A stretch of 36,529 nucleotides of DNA from Gemmatimonadota bacterium (lineage in GTDB: Bacteria; 4572-55; J002). The notes beneath the pieces were generated by a model, which made no database searches, was not told the DNA's origin, and was given only the letters and a program-made list of their open reading frames with translations. This document shows, piece after piece, positions 12,100 to 20,784 of the stretch. The stretch spans positions 1-36,529 of the forward strand of contig RFFQ01000096.1 of assembly GCA_003697105.1 (NCBI GenBank), in the 5' to 3' direction. Numbering within the stretch: position 1 is the first letter of the stretch; the number at the start of each line of letters is the position of its first letter. The position numbers and the translations under genes are program-made.

Positions 12100-12166
12100 G
12101 ATTTCGGATTTGGGTAACCGGATTACCGGCATTTGGCTGCTGATCCCAAATCCGCCATCCGAAATC
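12100..12166. repeat. heptamer-based inverted repeat in the rpoB-rpoC spacer
   Basis: GATTTCGGAT/ATCCGAAATC and CGGATTTGGG/CCCAAATCCG are both 10-bp perfect complements. Confidence 0.6.
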
Positions 12167-12181
12167 AGCAAGGAGGTTTTC

Positions 12182-15100
12182 GTGCAAGGACGAAATCAAA
12201 ATCTTTCCGAATTTTCAGCGATACGGCTACGGTTGGCGTCTCCCGATGTTATCCGTGAGCAATCCTTTGGTGAAGTGACCAAACCGGAAACTATTAATTA
12301 CCGGTCTTTCAAGCCGGAACGGGATGGGCTGTTTTGTGAACGCATTTTCGGCCCAGTGAAAGATTGGGAATGTAGCTGTGGGAAATATAAACGGATGCGC
12401 TATCGGGGCGTTATCTGTGACCGCTGCGGTGTGGAAGTAACGCTTTCCAAAGTGCGCCGGGAACGCTTGGGACATATCGATTTAGCCGTTCCAGTGGCTC
12501 ATATCTGGTATGTCAAGGGATTACCGAGTCGCGTGGGGAACCTGCTGGATATGTCCGTGCGGGATTTGGAGCGCGTTCTATATTATGAATCCTATTATGT
12601 GATTGACCCCGGTGAGATCGAGGGGATTGCTGCCGGCGAACTGTTGAGCGAAGATGAGTACTACGAACTTTCCCAACAATATGATTATCGGTTGGAAGAA
12701 TACGGGTTTGTCGCCGAAATGGGTGCCCCGGCGTTGAAAAAAATGTTACAAGCCATCAATTTGGAAGAATTGGCGACAGACCTTCAGGCGCGCTTGGGAG
12801 TGGAATCCTCAGAACAACAAAAGAAAAAAATACTGAAACGGCTTAAGATTGTAAAGTCCTTCTTGGATTCTGGTAACACCCCAGAAGAACGAAACAAGCC
12901 GGAATGGATGATCTTAGAAATGATTCCGGTGATTCCCCCTGATTTGCGCCCGTTGGTCGCATTGGAAGGTGGGCGGTTTGCCACCTCGGACTTAAATGAC
13001 TTGTATCGCCGGGTGATAAACCGGAATAACCGCTTGAAAAAATTGATTGAAATCCAAGCGCCCGAAGTCATCTTGCGCAATGAAAAACGGATGCTACAAG
13101 AAGCTGTGGATGCGCTCTTTGATAATGGACGCCGGTCGCGGGCGGTTCGTGGACATGGGAATCGTCCCCTGAAATCCCTCTCAGAAATGTTAAAAGGAAA
13201 GCAAGGGCGTTTCCGTCAAAACTTGCTTGGAAAACGGGTGGACTACTCCGGCCGTTCTGTAATCGTAGTGGGTCCCGAACTCGAAATGCACCAATGCGGG
13301 TTACCCAAAGCGATGGCGCTAGAATTGTTTAAGCCCTTTATTATCCGTCAGTTGGAAAGTAAAGGACACGTCCAAACGGTGAAAAGTGCGAAACGGTTGG
13401 TCGAACGAGAAACCACAGAAGTATGGGATATTTTAGAGGAGATTATTGCCGATCACCCCGTGTTTCTGAATCGTGCTCCTACATTGCACCGTTTGGGGAT
13501 TCAAGCATTTGAACCTGTTTTAGTGGAAGGAAAAGCGATTCGATTGCACCCTTTGGTTTGTGCGGCGTTCAATGCGGACTTTGACGGGGATCAGATGGCG
13601 GTTCATGTGCCGTTAGGATTTGAAGCCCAATTGGAAGCGCGGGTGCTAATGCTTTCCACTTTTAACATTTTATCCCCAGCAAACGGCCGTCCATTGGCAA
13701 CGCCCAGCCAAGATATTGTTATTGGACCTCACTATATGACCAAAATTCGGAAAGGTGGGAAAGGCGAAGGGCGTATTTTTGCCTCCACAGATGAAGCGGT
13801 GATGGCTCATGCCCAAAATCTAGTCGAATTACATTCGCGGATTAAAATCAAGGGTATTAACGTGATCAAGGAAGACCCCTCGTGGACGGAAAATGAGATG
13901 CGTGACCCCAATGCGTGGCAAGATTATACAACCGTCGGGCGCGTTCTCTTTAATCAGATTATCCCAGAGGGTATTTCTTTTCAAAATAAGGAATTGAAAA
14001 AGAAGGAATTAGCTGCGTTGGTTGGGGATGTTTACCGGCAATATGGGCCCATTCGCACCGCACAATTTCTTGACCGGCTCAAGGAAATCGGTTTTGAGTA
14101 TGCCACCCGTTGTGGTTTAACCGTCGGGGTGGAAGATATGATTATTCCGGAAACAAAACAGGCTCTCATTGATAAAGCTCGCACCGAAATCGAGGAAATT
14201 CAGCGCCAATATGATCGGGGTGTGATTACCGATGGGGAACGTTATAATAAAGTGATTGATACGTGGACCCATACCACTTCCGACGTCGCCAAGGAAATGT
14301 TTCGGGAGATGGAACTCAGCTACGATGGGTTTAATCCGATCTACATGATGGCGGACTCCGGTGCGCGGGGTAGTCGCGAACAGGTACGCCAGTTAGCGGG
14401 TATGCGAGGCCTGATGGCAAAACCGCAAAAGAAAATTACGGGCTCCGTTGGGGAAATCATCGAAACACCGATCCTTTCAAGTTTCCGTGAAGGGTTAACC
14501 GTGTTGGAATACTTTATCTCCACACATGGTGCGCGAAAAGGGTTGGCAGATACCGCCCTGAAAACCGCAGATGCGGGGTATTTAACGCGTCGTTTGGTAG
14601 ATGTGGCTCAGGATGCCATTATCACCGAAGAAGATTGCGGCACGGTGCGCGGGATTGACCGGATGGCGTTAAAAGAAGGGGAAGAAGTGATTGTCCCCCT
14701 TAAAGACCGAATTTTAGGCCGGGTTGCCTTGGATGATGTTGTTGACCCCATTACGGATGAAATTATTGTCAACGCCGGTACCGAAATTGACGAAACCGCG
14801 GCAAATATGATTGAAGATGCCAATATCGAACGGGTCCGTATTCGTTCCGTGCTGACCTGTGAAACCCGGCGAGGTATCTGTGTGAAATGCTATGGTCGCA
14901 ATTTAGCCACCGGTCGCATGGTTGAAGTTGGTGAGGCTGTTGGGATTATCGCGGCACAAAGTATTGGTGAACCGGGTACCCAATTGACCTTGCGGACGTT
15001 CCACATCGGGGGTACGGCGGCACGGATTGCGGCGCAATCGCAAAAAACGGTTAAAAGTGCCGGGAAAATCACTTATGAACAGCTTGATACCGTGACCAAT

Positions 15101-16360
15101 AAAGCCGGAAAGACGGTAGCAATTACTCGGAATGGGGTTTTAGTTTTAACTGACCGGAATGGGCGTGAATCCCGTTATGCCGTACCCTATGGGGCCATGG
15201 TGATGGTGTCAGATGGGCAAGATGTTGGAAAAAATCAAGTTATTTTTGAATGGGACCCTTACGCCGACTTGATTCTGGCTGATATTTCCGGTGAAGTCCG
15301 TTTTGTGGATATTGAAGAGGGTATCACAGTCCGAGAGGAATTGGATGAAAGCACGGGGCTTCGTCAGATGGTGATTGTGGAAGACCGGGAGCGCCAAAAA
15401 CACCCCCATATCCAAATTATGGTGAATGGTGAACGCCAACGTAATTACGCGATTCCCATCGGGGCTCATATCTTGGTGCATGACGGTGATAAGATTTCGG
15501 CAGGTGACCTGCTGGTTAAAATCCCCGGTGGGGTAACGAAAACACGAGACATCACCGGTGGTTTACCCCGTGTGGCAGAGCTTTTTGAAGCCCGGAAACC
15601 GAAAGATTGCGCGGTTGTTACCGAAGTTGACGGACGGGTGGTTTTCGGTGACATTGTTCGAGGTATGCGTAAGATCATCATCCAAACGGAGAATGAACTG
15701 GAGGATGGCACTAAGGAAGAACGCGTTTACCATGTCCCTTACGGAAAACACTTGCGGGTTCATGAAGGTGATAGGGTGGAAGCCGGAATGCGCCTATCCG
15801 AGGGTCCCGTAAATCCGCACGATATTTTACGCATTAAGGGTGAATTTGAAGTTCAGGAATATCTGTTGAATGAAATTCAAGAAGTTTACCGGTTGCAAGG
15901 CGTTGGGATTAACGACAAGCATATCGGGGTGATTGTTCGCCAAATGTTGCAAAAAGTCCAGATTGAAAATGCCGGTGATACCAACTTTCTAGAAGGTGAA
16001 CGGGTAGATAAATTCACGTTTCGTGAAGAAAACGAAAAAGTAATGGCTCAAGGTGGGGTGCCGGCAACTGCCCAACCGGTGTTGCTGGGAATCACCAAAG
16101 CCGCACTCTCCACCGAAAGTTTCGTTTCTGCGGCATCATTTCAAGAGACCACCCGGGTATTGACCGAAGCTGCCATTGAAGGGCGCCGGGATAATCTGCT
16201 GGGATTGATGGAAAACGTTATTATGGGTCATCTGATTCCGGCAGGTACAGGGGTTGGAATGTACCGTTCAGCAAAAATCGTGGAGAAAAATGTGGCTCCC
16301 GTCGAACCTGCCCCATCCGGTGGTAGTGATCTCTCAATAAAAAATGTGAGTGAACCATAA
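12182..16360 (+). CDS. rpoC: DNA-directed RNA polymerase subunit beta' (GTG start)
   Basis: Catalytic NADFDGD motif, N-terminal Zn-finger CSC..CDRC, trigger-loop insertion after TFHIGG; SD AAGGAGG at 12170-12176 before GTG 12182. Confidence 0.99.
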
Positions 16361-16527: not shown

Positions 16528-16899
16528 ATGCCTACGATAAATCAGCTAGTTAGGAAAGGTCGCAAAGCGATTAAGAAGAAAACTTCGGCGCCGGCTTTGA
16601 AAGGGTGTCCCCAGAAGCGGGGCGTTTGCACTCGGGTGTACACCTCTACACCGAAAAAGCCGAATTCGGCGCTTCGTAAAGTTGCTCGGGTCCGCTTAAC
16701 AAATGGGGTTGAAGTTACCGCGTATATCCCCGGGGAAGGGCATAACTTGCAGGAGCACTCTATTGTGCTGATTCGTGGAGGACGTGTGAAAGATTTACCC
16801 GGAGTACGTTACCACATTATTCGGGGTGCTTTGGATTCCAGTGGCGTCAATAATCGTAAGCAGAGTCGTTCGAAATACGGTACGAAAAGACCTAAGTAA
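16528..16899 (+). CDS. rpsL: 30S ribosomal protein uS12
   Basis: [22 protein letters not shown]. Confidence 0.99.
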
Positions 16900-16916: not shown

Positions 16917-17387
16917 ATGTCGAGGAAACGAGCCGCTGAAAAGCGACAATTATTACCAGACCCCAAATATCACGATGTCATGGTCACTCGCTTTATTAAC
17001 AATGTAACTAAGCGAGGGAAAAAGAGTGTGGCGGAACGTAGTTTTTACGCCGCGCTGGATTTGATCGAAGCCCGTACGGGTCAACAAGGTCTGGCAGTAT
17101 TTAAAAAAGCAATTGATAATGTCAAACCGATAGTTGAAGTCCGTTCTCGCCGGATCGGGGGCTCCACGTATCAAGTCCCCACCGAAGTTCGGCCCGACCG
17201 CCAGATTTCTCTGGCGATCCGGTGGTTAATTACCTATTCTAATGCCCGTTCTGAACGTACCTTAGCGGAACGGTTAGCAGGAGAATTTATTGCCGCATCC
17301 AAAGGTGAAGGCGCTTCCATCAAAAAACGGGAAGATACGCACCGCATGGCGGAGGCAAATAAAGCCTTCTCACATTACCGTTGGTAG
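16917..17387 (+). CDS. rpsG: 30S ribosomal protein uS7
   Basis: [27 protein letters not shown]. Confidence 0.98.
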
Positions 17388-17427
17388 TGCAATTTCTCTT
17401 CACACCCGATGATACTGTGGTTTCATC

Positions 17428-19518
17428 ATGAGACATTTTCCTTTGGAGCGATTGCGTAACATCGGGATTATGGCGCATATCGACGCCGGTAAAACGACCA
17501 CCACAGAACGAATATTGTATTATTCCGGTATGATTCATCGACCGGGAAATGTTGATGATGGCTCAACCGTCACCGATTGGATGGAACAAGAAAAAGAGCG
17601 AGGTATTACGATTACCTCTGCCGCCATCTCCTGCTTTTGGGCAGATCACAAAATCAACATTATTGATACCCCCGGGCATGTTGATTTTACGGTTGAAGTT
17701 GAACGTTCTTTGAGAGTGTTAGATGGTGCTGTTGTTGTCTTGTGCGGGGTTTCGGGGGTGGAACCGCAATCGGAGACCGTCTGGCATCAAGCAGATCGCT
17801 ATAATGTACCACGAATCGCTTATATAAATAAGCTTGACCGGGTAGGGGCAAATTTTGATGCTGCCGTTGCTTCTATTGTGGAACGATTGGGCGCTAACCC
17901 GGTTCGGTTGCAACTTCCCATTTTTGAGAAGGATGAATTTACCGGCATTATCGATTTGATCGAAGAGAAAGCGATCTTTTACGACGAGACCTCTTTAGGA
18001 CGGAAGTATAGCGTTCAGGACGTACCGCTGGAATTTTTAGAGTCCGTAGAGTTGTACCGTGAAGAAATGCTCGACGCAATTTCATTATATGATGATGAAA
18101 TGACAGAGCATTATCTGGAAATCGAGAATCATCATCTGCTAAATAAAGATTTGATTCGTCGAGCTATACGAAAGGGTACGATTTCCTGCCAAATTGTCCC
18201 GGTAATGTGTGGGTCATCCTTTAAGTATAAGGGCGTTCAACCGTTGCTTGATGGTATTATTCAATATTTACCCTCCCCGTTAGATGTTCCGCCAGTAAAA
18301 GGGATTCACCCGACGACGCAGATTGAACTTGTTCGGGAAACGGATGATAGCCAGCCGTTGACGGCACTTGCCTTCAAAATTATGGCAGACTCTTACGTCG
18401 GTAAATTAACGTTTTTGCGTATTTATTCAGGCTCTTTGAAGGTGGGCGATTCCGTGCTGAATCCCCGGACTGGAAAAACATCGCGGGTGGGTCGATTGCT
18501 TGAGATGAAAGCGAACCAGCGTACGAATGTGGAGCAAGCCTTAGCAGGTGATATTGTGGCTGCCGTTGGGTTGCGCGATTTTGCTACGGGAGATACCTTG
18601 TGTCTGCCCCAAGACCCTATCGTTCTGGAGAGTATGTCTTTCCCTGATCCCGTAGTCTTCACCGCGGTTGAACCGAAGACGAAAGCGGATGAAGAGAAGC
18701 TACAACAAACATTGCTCCAATTTGCTGAAGAAGACCCCAGTTTTCATGTCTCTATCGATAACGATACGGGTCAAACCTTAATTTCTGGGATGGGGGAACT
18801 TCATCTCGATGTTATTATTGACCGGATGGTGCGGGAATATAACGTTAATGTGAATGTAGGGCGTCCGCAGGTTGCTTATAAGGAATCCATTTTGGCTACG
18901 GCGGAAAGCACCGGTATATTTGAGCGGCAGGTCTCAAATAAAAATATGTTTGCTCAAGTCACATTGCGTGTTCGGCCATTAGAACGCGGCGCAGGATTCA
19001 CGTTTGATTCTGAAGTATCGGATGACATCATTCCGGGCATGTTTCTTCCGGCGATCCAAAAAGGTGTTCAGGACTCTTTGTCAAATGGTGTTTTGGCAAG
19101 TTATCCCCTGACCGATGTCGGGGTTACGGTCATCGACGGGGTGTACCGGGAGCTTGAATCGACAGAATTAGCCTATACGGTTGCCGGTTCTGTTGCGTTT
19201 CGACAGGCATTAAACCAAGCACACCCGGTCTTGTTGGAGCCGGTCATGGATGTGGAAGTGATGGTTCCTGAAGAATATGTGGGGGATGTTATTTCCGATT
19301 TGAACTCGCGGCGGGGGCGTATCCTAAATATTAGCGACCGCAATAATGTGAAGTTGGTTTCAGCAGATGTAGCACTTTCCGAAATGTTTGGGTATGCGAC
19401 CGCATTGCGGTCTTTAACTCAAGGGCGAGCGGTTTATTCCATGGAATTTAAATCTTACGATGTTGTTCCTGAGCAAATACAGAATTCTATCATCAACAAA
19501 TTTACAGGCAATTATTAA
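17428..19518 (+). CDS. fusA: elongation factor G family protein, divergent (EF-G2/recycling-type features)
   Basis: [22 protein letters not shown] and NKLD G-motifs; located between rpsG and tuf; domain IV loop motifs altered. Confidence 0.93.
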
Positions 19519-19578
19519 CGACTTCAACTACCATTTATGGTAACATTAGTTAATTTCTCTTAAGGAGGATATTTCAAA

Positions 19579-20784
19579 ATGGCTAAAGGTGTTTTTGAGC
19601 GGACAAAGCCCCACGTTAATGTTGGAACTATTGGGCACGTTGACCATGGTAAAACTACGTTGACCGCCGCAATTACGTTGGTACAGAGCAAGAAAGGTCT
19701 AGCTGAAGTTCGGGAATTCGGTTCCATTGACAAGGCGCCAGAAGAGCGTGAACGGGGTATTACGATTGCCACAGCTCACGTGGAGTATGAAAGTGAAAAG
19801 CGGCACTATGCGCACGTGGATTGTCCGGGTCACGCAGACTATGTGAAAAACATGATTACCGGGGCCGCGCAAATGGATGGTGCAATCTTGGTCGTTTCCG
19901 CCGCGGATGGTCCGATGCCGCAAACGCGGGAACACATCCTGTTAGCGCGTCAGGTGAACGTACCCTATATTGTGGTTTTTCTGAACAAAGTGGATATGGT
20001 TGATGACGAAGAACTCTTGGAATTGGTTGAGTTAGAAGTTCGGGAACTTCTCTCCCAGTATGACTTTCCGGGGGACGACTTGCCTGTCATCATGGGTAGT
20101 GCATTGCAAGCCATGGAAAATCCCGAAGATGAAGAAAAGACGAAGTGCATTCAAGAACTCATGGATGCATTAGATAGTTACATCCCTGAACCTGAGCGTG
20201 ATGTGGACCGCCCGTTCTTGATGCCCATTGAAGACGTTTTCAGCATTTCGGGTCGAGGTACTGTGGGTACCGGTCGAGTCGAACGGGGTATTGTTAAAGT
20301 GGGGGATAAGCTTCAACGCGTTGGTATTAGAGAAACCATTGATGTGGTGGTTACGGGTGTGGAAATGTTTAATAAGTCCATGCAGGAAGCCCAAGCAGGT
20401 GATAATATCGGTCTTCTGCTTCGGGGTATTAAGAAAGAAGATTTGGAACGCGGTATGGTTCTGGCGGCGCCGGGTTCAGTCACACCCCATACTAAATTCA
20501 AAGCTGAGGTTTACATTTTGACCAAAGAAGAAGGTGGGCGTCATACACCATTCTTCCGGGGTTATCGGCCTCAATTTTTCTTCCGTACCACTGATGTGAC
20601 GGGTTCTATCGTTAATATTACAAGCACTGATGCCGGTGAAGTTGAAATGGTGATGCCCGGGGATAACGTCCGGATGGAAGTGGAACTGATTACCCCGATC
20701 GCGATGGAAAAAGAACTTCGTTTTGCAATTCGCGAAGGTGGACGTACGGTTGGTGCTGGAGTTATTACCGATATTATCGAATAA
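19579..20784 (+). CDS. tuf: elongation factor Tu
   Basis: [33 protein letters not shown]; strong SD AAGGAGG. Confidence 0.99.

Follow-up and report, generated by a model that had tools for sequence, protein, structure and literature searches.

A str-operon elongation factor G with a rewritten domain IV tip, probably specialised for ribosome recycling beside a canonical paralog

Does the fusA gene of a str operon encode the translocase of its organism? The question is raised by the window analysed here, a stretch of 36,529 nucleotides of contig RFFQ01000096.1 from a Gemmatimonadota bacterium (GTDB lineage Bacteria; 4572-55; J002), in which fusA occupies its slot in the order rpsL-rpsG-fusA-tuf (Table 1). 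Such a position is one of the criteria for EFG I in the sense of Margus 2011 (PMC3150367), and by position the product, P0001, would pass for the organism's translocase. It also passes the equivalog cut-off for EF-G (TIGR00484, 954.7 bits vs 659.4), and annotation pipelines call the gene plain "elongation factor G". The initial annotation read it as defective in translocation and specialised for recycling.

Table 1. Coordinates of the str operon and of the P0001 features discussed in the text (positions in the window).
Feature	Position	Strand	Basis
rpsL (S12), gene 1 of the str operon	16528..16899	+	ORF; tblastn
rpsG (S7), 40-nt gap 5' of fusA	16917..17387	+	ORF
fusA paralog P0001, 696-aa five-domain EF-G	17428..19518	+	open frame, translation
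P-loop AHIDAGKT (G1), intact	17473..17496	+	motif reading
Pre-switch-I segment, aa 34-51, variant, non-diagnostic	17527..17580	+	GNVDDGxTVxDW wording
Switch II DTPGHVDF with catalytic His, intact	17665..17688	+	motif reading
G' segment EIENHHLLN with 3-residue insertion	18118..18144	+	alignment of 73 EF-Gs
Domain IV loop 1, aa 500-511, conserved Gly-Gly to S503/N504, next conserved Gly to N506	18925..18960	+	alignment
Domain IV third tip loop VSDDIIP, aa 530-536 (G532D, G533D)	19015..19035	+	alignment
Domain IV loop 2, aa 571-580, conserved His to Arg574, DSS to EST	19138..19167	+	alignment
tuf (EF-Tu), 60-nt gap 3' of fusA, strong AAGGAGG ribosome-binding site	19579..20784	+	ORF

The setting of the gene is that of ordinary translation machinery. 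All five EF-G domains are recognised by Pfam (GTP_EFTU, D2, EFG_III, EFG_IV and EFG_C), and the AlphaFold2 model has a mean pLDDT of 88.0 and a pTM of 0.78, with the blocks of domain IV at a pLDDT of 86-95. The codon adaptation of fusA lies in the 91st percentile of 2478 ORFs, similar to that of rpoC, and its Shine-Dalgarno pairing is the weakest of the 31 cluster genes (-2.2 kcal/mol, vs -10.7 for tuf). The str-operon site and the rpoC-like codon adaptation would also suit a main factor, which is a counterpoint to the recycling reading. With the S12 protein of the window as tblastn query, rpsL was found to adjoin fusA in related loci at 79-86% identity. The whole window is also present in contigs of two public DNA runs from one study, labelled as hot-spring metagenomes, with identical loop codons; one of the two runs may itself be where the window sequence came from. 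The fusA copies in these contigs differ from that of the window at five positions, all outside the loops and three synonymous, which is too few for testing.

It is above all in domain IV that P0001 departs from an ordinary EF-G. The G motifs, including G4 (NKLD), are intact, and the motif changes noticed by the initial annotation were all recovered where it had placed them, with the Arg in loop 2 as residue 574. Both the loop-1 Gly-Gly and the loop-2 His of the conserved EF-G tip are absent from P0001, and a third tip loop, absent from the list of the initial annotation, is altered too: the other two paralogs of the genome read IVGGxIP where P0001 has VSDDIIP. With conserved sites defined as those at least 90% conserved among 43 canonical or partner EF-Gs, 13 of 30 in domain IV are changed in P0001, compared with 11 of 118 in the G domain, 2 of 31 in domain II, 1 of 22 in domain III and 1 of 21 in domain V (5-9% in each domain other than IV). 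In three canonical controls, the differences amount to 0-1 of 30-31 conserved sites in domain IV and 1-2 of 118-119 in the G domain. The damage to domain IV of P0001 is focused on the three tip loops and goes beyond ordinary variation. A further peculiarity, the 3-residue insertion in G', is limited to three of the 73 aligned EF-Gs, namely P0001, P0005 and P0009.

One region singled out earlier turned out not to be diagnostic. The segment before switch I had been taken to set P0001 apart, and GxVDxGxTxTD to be a signature of the spdEFG2 type; the same GNVDDGxTV wording is found in two str-operon EF-Gs, L103 and L110, that retain both an intact loop 1 and the His, and the supposed signature is absent from the spdEFG2-like sequences gathered here (L127, GEVHNGEAIMDW; L125, GEVDDGEATMDW). 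The signature is characteristic of EFGII-like paralogs and of certain str-operon EF-Gs whose tips are intact.

Tip-less EF-Gs similar to P0001 occur in at least 4 of the 30 other genomes sampled. P0005 (66% identical to P0001) and P0009 (58%) likewise have loops without Gly-Gly and an Arg at the His site, as does L080 at the latter position; the combination of Arg574 with E-x-E-S-T recurs in P0005 and L080, and close variants of it are found in P0009, P0124 and P0147. Each of nine degenerate-tip genomes, chosen for that feature, has one or more further EF-G-family genes whose tip loops are intact. One 98% complete genome (G013) has only a degenerate-tip copy (L109) and an EFGII-type paralog with Tyr for the switch-II His. 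Since G013 has two non-canonical factors only, one of them must translocate, and a degenerate tip may therefore not abolish translocation.

The genome under study does hold a second fusA with intact QSGG and YHDVDS-type motifs, as had been predicted. This copy, P0002, lies outside the str operon (G000:C120:11122-13188); it reads KQSGGRGQYAHV and GSYHEVDSSE at the two loops, scores 1082.5 bits against TIGR00484, departs from the conserved residues at 1 of 30 domain IV sites, lacks a KDG insertion and is 49-50% identical to P0001. It has an AAGGAG ribosome-binding site of its own and a promoter-like TTGACA...TATTTT, the latter read by eye. Its codon adaptation is in the 67th percentile, and its GC content is 0.51 vs 0.485 for the genome. 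Contig C120 is typical of the genome in tetranucleotide composition (distance rank 58 of 151), and the neighbouring asd gene has the two same-phylum genomes as its second- and third-best matches; in this 199-contig assembly, the link between the contigs of P0001 and P0002 rests on binning. P0003, a third copy, is EFGII-like, with Tyr for the switch-II His. P0001 is one of three EF-G-family genes and not the only EF-G of the genome, which also has a single frr gene for RRF (G000:C101:41977-42501). The copy that appears specialised is the one that has kept the ancestral str-operon slot.

The family placement of P0001 was examined by FastTree trees with SH-like supports and by fixed-topology AU tests, on a set that included no named Borrelia or planctomycete sequences. 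In full-length trees P0001 groups with spdEFG2-like sequences (SH-like 0.963 and 0.977). Among these are L125, found in a Spirochaetaceae MAG, and L127, found in a deltaproteobacterial MAG in which a KDG-insert EF-G is present as well. A single clade unites the 23 degenerate-tip sequences when every column is used (SH-like 0.977). After removal of domain IV, their monophyly is rejected (p-AU 0.0067), and the subclade of P0001 joins the core spdEFG2-like subclade at 0.797 only. A sister relation of P0001 to the EF-G of its own phylum is not rejected (p-AU 0.21 and 0.135). Grouping P0002 with the EF-G of the phylum is rejected without domain IV (p-AU 0.036), but the test is not significant with all columns (p-AU 0.195). 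Outside domain IV, no clean synapomorphy uniting P0001 with the core spdEFG2-like subclade was found: His120 is common to P0001, L127 and L125 but occurs also in two partner sequences and one canonical sequence, and the best discriminating site, Leu265 (14 of 17), is absent from P0001. The kinship with spdEFG2-like proteins suggested earlier may hold: it shows in the full-length grouping and weakens without domain IV. The partner is not of the spdEFG1 type.

Two other families were tried for P0001 and rejected. It is not an EFGII, scoring 461 bits against NF009377 (cut-off 890) and 455 against NF058620 (cut-off 1000), and its switch II reads DTPGHVDF, not the DTPGY that defines the EFGII-type G domain in the examples of this set. 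Nor is it a ribosomal protection protein of the Tet(M)/Tet(O) type (NF012153, 432.3 bits vs a cut-off of 775). A search of PDB sequences gave 795 bits to bacterial EF-G vs 531 to mtEFG1 and 527 to mtEFG2, a result that has no bearing on clade membership.

We give a probability of roughly 0.6 to the reading, drawn from sequence, that P0001 is a translocation-impaired EF-G specialised for RRF-dependent recycling and that the C120 copy is the translocase. P0001 would be a folded, GTP-hydrolysing EF-G stripped of the domain IV tip on which tRNA-mRNA translocation depends; it would work only or mainly with RRF, splitting post-termination ribosomes, and translocation would be carried out by the canonical P0002. 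We infer these activities of both proteins. In PMC8203779, the loss of just one loop-1 glycine is the rationale for the inability of EF-G2mt and B. burgdorferi EF-G2 to translocate, and mutations at the loop-1 tip have a negligible effect on disassembly of the bacterial ribosome; a review is cited for the same argument (PMC9067457). The recycling role proposed at the outset draws support from the literature in that the lost residues are tied to translocation and not to ribosome splitting, and the role itself is an extrapolation from them. Recycling also depends on domain IV, and the rewritten tip could affect that activity as well.

Three rival explanations have to be weighed against recycling specialisation. 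P0001 may still be the housekeeping, bifunctional EF-G, its odd tip tolerated or compensated by the ribosome, with P0002 an accessory or recently acquired copy of conditional use. The str-operon position, the higher codon adaptation of P0001 than of P0002, the deviating GC content of P0002 and the existence of G013, which apparently lives without a fully canonical EF-G, are all in line with this, and the rejected grouping of P0002 with the EF-G of the phylum in the absence of domain IV fits a foreign origin. That rejection, however, is lost when all columns are used. Both loop-1 glycines and the loop-2 His, residues tied to translocation in PMC8203779, have gone together; the Shine-Dalgarno pairing of fusA is the weakest of the cluster, whereas tuf and P0002 have strong or recognisable sites; and a degenerate-tip EF-G is the sole EF-G in none of the nine genomes. 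A housekeeping P0001 is in our judgement quite unlikely.

A different derived job on the ribosome, such as splitting ribosomes that have stalled or are in hibernation, or clearing the A site of a factor or drug, would make the charged tip of P0001 an adaptation and not a loss. Altered domain IV loops are also a feature of ribosomal protection proteins, which are related to EF-G, and the derived loops here are conserved, not random: they recur among the relatives listed above, and domain IV of P0001 is 57% identical to that of P0005. We nevertheless hold such a job to be unlikely, given the score far under the Tet-type cut-off, the plain translation-machinery setting of the gene and the fact that the literature consulted documents no second function other than recycling for paralogs of this kind. 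The remaining explanation, a decaying, functionless P0001 with both EF-G functions taken over by P0002, could account for the faster evolution across the whole protein, visible in the G domain relative to the canonical controls and in an identity of only 54-55% to same-phylum EF-Gs. The gene is not decaying, though, judged by derived loops that the 66%- and 58%-identical relatives retain, the confident fold and the high codon adaptation, and its 696-codon frame is intact with all G motifs kept; this explanation is highly improbable.

The recycling reading can be carried further, if only tentatively. It is possible, though rather doubtful, that the resident str-operon fusA repeatedly and independently lost its tip after a second EF-G had arrived, candidate lineages being this three-species phylum and Neomarinimicrobiota, with the locus keeping recycling and the newcomer translocating. 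The same conjecture includes a three-way split in the present genome, in which P0001 is a GTPase without the tip, P0002 has both, and P0003 has the tip with a His-to-Tyr switch II that might allow hydrolysis-independent translocation.

Should the split be real, the gene for the actual translocase of this organism lies elsewhere, and position in the str operon does not guarantee the function of a gene. The case adds to the evidence that the two EF-G jobs separate easily, possibly repeatedly, and bears on the origin of the mitochondrial pair. As a naturally tip-less EF-G whose GTPase is intact, P0001 may help to tell the mechanics of ribosome splitting apart from those of translocation. The advance is incremental, as pairs that divide the EF-G functions, and a str-operon copy biased towards recycling, have been described before; the extension of the range of the split that had been expected is likewise modest, since Atkinson 2015 had recorded spd-type EF-Gs beyond the three spd groups, with spdEFG1 in Fibrobacter as one example (PMC4342817).

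Among known systems, EFGII (T. thermophilus EF-G-2 type; NF009381 / NF009377) resembles P0001 in being an extra paralog and in its VDxGxTVxD-like wording before switch I, but the EFGII-type proteins of this set retain the glycine pair of loop 1 and the His of loop 2 and have Tyr for the switch-II His, the reverse of P0001. The spdEFG2 proteins (e.g. B. burgdorferi EF-G2) are closer: like them, P0001 coexists with a putative translocase paralog and, as the second EF-G, has a damaged glycine pair in loop 1, and loss of one or both of these universally conserved glycines is the mark of spdEFG2 and mtEFG2 in PMC8203779. P0001 differs in lacking both glycines and the His as well. According to PMC3150367, spdEFG2 co-occurs with spdEFG1, recognised by a KDG insertion in switch I, in genomes without EFG I; the partner here, by contrast, has no such insertion, scores as an ordinary EF-G and is clearly unlike the KDG-type sequences L130 and L140. 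The C-terminal helix is also full in P0001, P0005 and P0009, but in the core spdEFG2-like subclade it has been lost by 8 of 11 members (L127, P0124, P0166, P0170, P0184, P0186, L146 and L115).

Mitochondrial EF-G2 (GFM2 / RRF2mt) and EF-G1mt share with P0001 and P0002 the proposed division of labour. The same source (PMC8203779) describes EF-G2mt as having an altered loop 1 that cannot enter the decoding centre and a C-terminal helix shortened such that RRF can bind beside it, and GTP hydrolysis as unneeded for subunit splitting in mitochondria and required for it in bacteria. The mitochondrial protein is distant (527 bits for P0001 to 7l20_w, vs 795 to T. thermophilus EF-G). In P. aeruginosa, as given in PMC3832671, the str-operon copy EF-G1A is a poor translocase that acts with RRF, EF-G1B outside the operon translocates, and both are EFG I. 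P0001 is likewise a putative poor translocase in the str operon with P0002 outside it, although the P. aeruginosa pair is 84% identical, compared with 49-50% here. In function, P0001 most likely corresponds to EF-G2 of B. burgdorferi and of mitochondria and to EF-G1A of P. aeruginosa.

The product of the str-operon fusA (P0001) scores 954.7 bits against TIGR00484, the EF-G equivalog model (cut-off 659.4), and all five Pfam EF-G domains are found in it. Downstream of tuf, rpsJ is followed by the genes of the S10, spc and alpha operons, and the whole series lies on the plus strand of the window. Translation of the ORF returned every motif quoted in the initial annotation at its nucleotides, with the arginine at residue 574, and in the alignment the GTPase motifs are intact as claimed (P-loop, switch II DTPGHVDF and NKLD). 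We also noticed that the third tip loop is altered too, reading VSDDIIP versus IVGGxIP in the two other paralogs of the genome. The pre-switch-I wording, which had been put forward as a distinguishing mark, is uninformative because GNVDDGNTV(T/M)DW also occurs in two str-operon EF-Gs (L103 and L110) in which loop 1 and the His are retained. A Shine-Dalgarno sequence is not recognisable for fusA in window 17388-17427, and it pairs more weakly than any other of the 31 cluster genes scored (-2.2 kcal/mol; tuf -10.7; scored with a general anti-SD string rather than one from the 16S of this genome); tuf, 60 nt downstream, has AAGGAGG within 19519-19578.

Coordinates of rpoC and the str-operon genes of the window and of the two other EF-G genes of the genome (G000)
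Feature	Position	Strand	Remark
rpoC	12110-16360	+	window gene
rpsL	16528-16899	+	window gene
rpsG	16917-17387	+	window gene
fusA (P0001)	17428-19518	+	ORF translation, 696 aa
tuf	19579-20784	+	window gene
P0002	G000:C120:11122-13188	-	49-50% identity to P0001
P0003	G000:C181:650-2710 (= L003:629-2737)	+ in L003	EFGII-like; 37% identity to P0001

The departure of domain IV from ordinary EF-Gs was counted in an alignment of 73 EF-G-family sequences, hand-chosen from fetched loci and proteins, which comprises 23 degenerate-tip sequences (altered domain IV loops), five partner paralogs, 38 canonical EF-Gs, four EFGII-like and three spdEFG1-like sequences (L130 and L140 with the KDG insert, L114 without it and assigned by tree position); about 60 further sequences from the loci, most of them canonical near-duplicates, were omitted. 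At sites conserved to at least 90% in the canonical and partner rows (43 in all), domain IV of P0001 departs at 13 of 30 (G503S, G504N, G506N, Q507M, G532D, G533D, E538M, G558S, S572V, H574R, V576L, D577E and F583Y), versus 11/118 in G, 2/31 in II, 1/22 in III and 1/21 in V. Canonical controls are changed at 0-1 of 30-31 conserved domain IV sites, and P0002 at 1/30. By these counts, the tip loss in P0001 is real, focused and far above background.

The genome (4.18 Mb in 199 contigs; completeness 96.9%, contamination 0.66%) has three full-length EF-G genes and one frr gene. A second fusA with intact tip motifs had been predicted elsewhere in the genome, and P0002, outside the str operon, is such a gene: its motifs are HKIGEVHDGAATMDW, KQSGGRGQYAHV, IVGGAIP and GSYHEVDSSE, and it scores 1082.5 bits against TIGR00484. 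It is flanked by an asd-like gene on one side and a glutamine-amidotransferase-like gene on the other, and is preceded by an AAGGAG ribosome-binding site and, by eye, a promoter-like TTGACA...TATTTT. There is no sign that its contig is a binning error, as judged from tetranucleotide distance to the genome mean (rank 58 among the 151 contigs that reach 8 kb) and from asd matches in 30 other genomes (best 65% in G030; second and third, at 59% and 53%, in two same-phylum genomes). One such asd match (G003:C130:4243-5310) has one in-frame TGA, and in G007, a 1.2-Mb genome, the sole EF-G gene (L112, G007:C1:204038-206101) has one in-frame TAG; these stops may be due to recoding, to an alternative genetic code or to errors in sequencing. 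Also beside P0002, an ORF (L002:4354-5061, minus strand) has an end segment, NYPNPFNPQTTITF..., which we take to resemble the C-terminal sorting domain of type IX secretion substrates and which would fit an FCB-group host. The third copy, P0003, best matches NF009381 (930.5 bits), keeps the tip loops and has Tyr for the catalytic His in switch II (DTPGYPDY), as do all six EFGII-like paralogs aligned, from this and five other genomes; in these motifs, its pattern is the mirror image of that of P0001.

An explanation of P0001 as a pseudogene or artefact is very unlikely on three observations. The AlphaFold2 model (50-row alignment) is confident, with mean pLDDT 88.0, pTM 0.78 and domain IV blocks at 86-95. 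Codon adaptation of fusA, referred to the window's ribosomal protein genes in a genome with weak codon bias, is at the 91st percentile among 2478 long ORFs (tuf 98th, rpoC 93rd, P0003 87th, P0002 67th). The whole 4.7-kb stretch is also present in contigs from each of two public DNA runs belonging to the same study, one of them possibly the source of this DNA, with six differences from the window (16803, 17853, 17897, 18029, 18057 and 18711); five are in fusA, of which three are synonymous and two nonsynonymous (the G'-region changes N157S and L201Q), and none is in the tip loops. Among the best 8000 word-sharing candidates scored from a 5.8-billion-protein collection, the only protein more than 58% identical to P0001 is P0005 (66%), with loops RQVAAKNHFGHV, SSELIP and GTYRELESTD, and the next match is P0009 (58%), with RVISGKQQFGHV and GSWRETESSE. 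A three-residue G' insertion is common to these three and absent from the remaining 70 aligned EF-Gs. Identity between P0001 and P0005 is 68% in G, 65% in II, 68% in III, 57% in IV and 71% in V, so domain IV is the fastest-evolving domain yet still constrained.

According to Koripella et al. 2021 (PMC8203779), two loop-1 glycines admit domain IV to the decoding center, and both EF-G2mt and B. burgdorferi EF-G2 have a replacement at one of the two; mutating the loop-1 tip severely impairs elongation but leaves bacterial ribosome disassembly almost unaffected, and bacterial splitting requires GTP hydrolysis. A review (PMC9067457) describes the division of labor in Borrelia and P. aeruginosa in the same way. 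Both loop-1 glycines, the following glycine, the third-loop GG and the His are gone from P0001, and it keeps every GTPase motif, the profile that would be expected of a recycling-only factor. We infer such a role, as the initial annotation had proposed, from the sequence state and its conservation, from the fold, and from the set of paralogs with just one RRF gene. The weak Shine-Dalgarno pairing of fusA and the strong ribosome-binding site of P0002 would fit a P0001 needed in lower amounts than its neighbors. Counting against the recycling-only reading are the str-operon position and high codon adaptation of P0001, and also G013 (98% complete), in which an EF-G with intact tip and catalytic His was not found: its two EF-G-family genes are a degenerate-tip EF-G located away from the str operon (L109, G013:C3:4077-6140) and an EFGII type whose switch II has Tyr (L158, G013:C14:48200-50900), its sole intact-tip gene.

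Degenerate-tip EF-Gs occur in at least four of the 30 other genomes sampled in the relatives search (G008, G013, G015 and G024) and, via named loci, in four more: a Spirochaetaceae MAG (G033), a deltaproteobacterial MAG (G035), a Neomarinimicrobiota MAG (G036) and an uncultured bacterium (G037). A domain-IV-only search gave more, some of them under the names Desulfobulbaceae and Desulfurivibrio dismutans. The degenerate copy is in the rpsG-fusA-tuf slot in G000, G036, G015 and G037, and outside it in G008, G013, G024, G033 and G035. All nine genomes carry a further EF-G-family gene with intact tip loops, a count that is descriptive because the genomes were chosen by the degenerate tip itself. 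The str-operon EF-G of G036 (L080/L138) reads NKTQYAVI and EYRENESTE, with two further paralogs in the genome; in that of G037 (L042/L136), loop 1 and the GG loop are gone and the loop-2 His remains (GIHHEVDSSE). G037 also has an EFGII-like gene and, 24 kb from its str-operon EF-G within one contig, a KDG-insert spdEFG1-type gene (L140). The phylum comparison covers three species genomes; besides G000 these are G001 and G002, which belong to the same class and a different family. Their str operons hold a canonical EF-G (L093 and L094), each genome has one EFGII-like gene as well, and no third copy was found in either.

The tip state of P0001 may stem from common descent with spdEFG2 or from convergent loss in place. 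With all columns, FastTree unites P0001 and every degenerate-tip sequence in one clade (SH-like 0.963 with 118 rows, 0.977 with 73). Domain IV columns were removed because the group was defined by that domain, and the clade of 23 is then lost: 17 stay together at only 0.797, two other degenerate-tip groups pair with canonical sequences, and L080 moves beside the canonical Neomarinimicrobiota L077 (SH-like 0.893), which suggests that independent loss in Neomarinimicrobiota is likely. In AU tests (LG+F+G4, 10,000 RELL replicates; constrained topologies came from FastTree, so a better constrained tree is possible), one clade of all 23 is rejected on the 571 columns without domain IV (p 0.0067) and not on all 693 (p 0.40). 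A sister relation of P0001, P0005 and P0009 to the phylum's own L093 and L094 is not rejected (p 0.21 and 0.135, respectively), and P0002 with L093 and L094 is rejected without domain IV (p 0.036) and not with all columns (p 0.195). In the 73-sequence alignment, no residue outside domain IV was found that cleanly unites P0001 with the core spdEFG2-like subclade; 8 of its 11 members have lost the last C-terminal helix, whereas P0001 retains it. K/E-rich C-terminal tails occur in the non-str partner paralogs P0002, L147, L139 and L148 and in KDG-type sequences; the lost helix and these tails are reminiscent of EF-G2mt, whose helix is short, and of EF-G1mt, which has a C-terminal extension. The KDG insertion, a mark of spdEFG1 (PMC3150367), is seen in L130 and L140 and not in P0002.

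Split EF-G pairs are known from spirochaetes, planctomycetes, deltaproteobacteria and mitochondria (PMC3150367), and scattered spd-type genes from further groups, including spdEFG1 in Fibrobacter (Atkinson 2015, PMC4342817). In P. aeruginosa, the str-operon copy is a poor translocase that acts with RRF (PMC3832671). No description of the present combination of features was found in the open-access literature searched. Compared with the known pairs, P0001 shows a more complete tip loss; as the degenerate copy it sits in the ancestral operon slot, and it has a retained C-terminal helix and a private G' insertion. In addition, the partner P0002 is EFG-I-like without the KDG insertion, an extra EFGII-like copy (P0003) has the reverse loss pattern, and the host phylum is very sparsely sampled.
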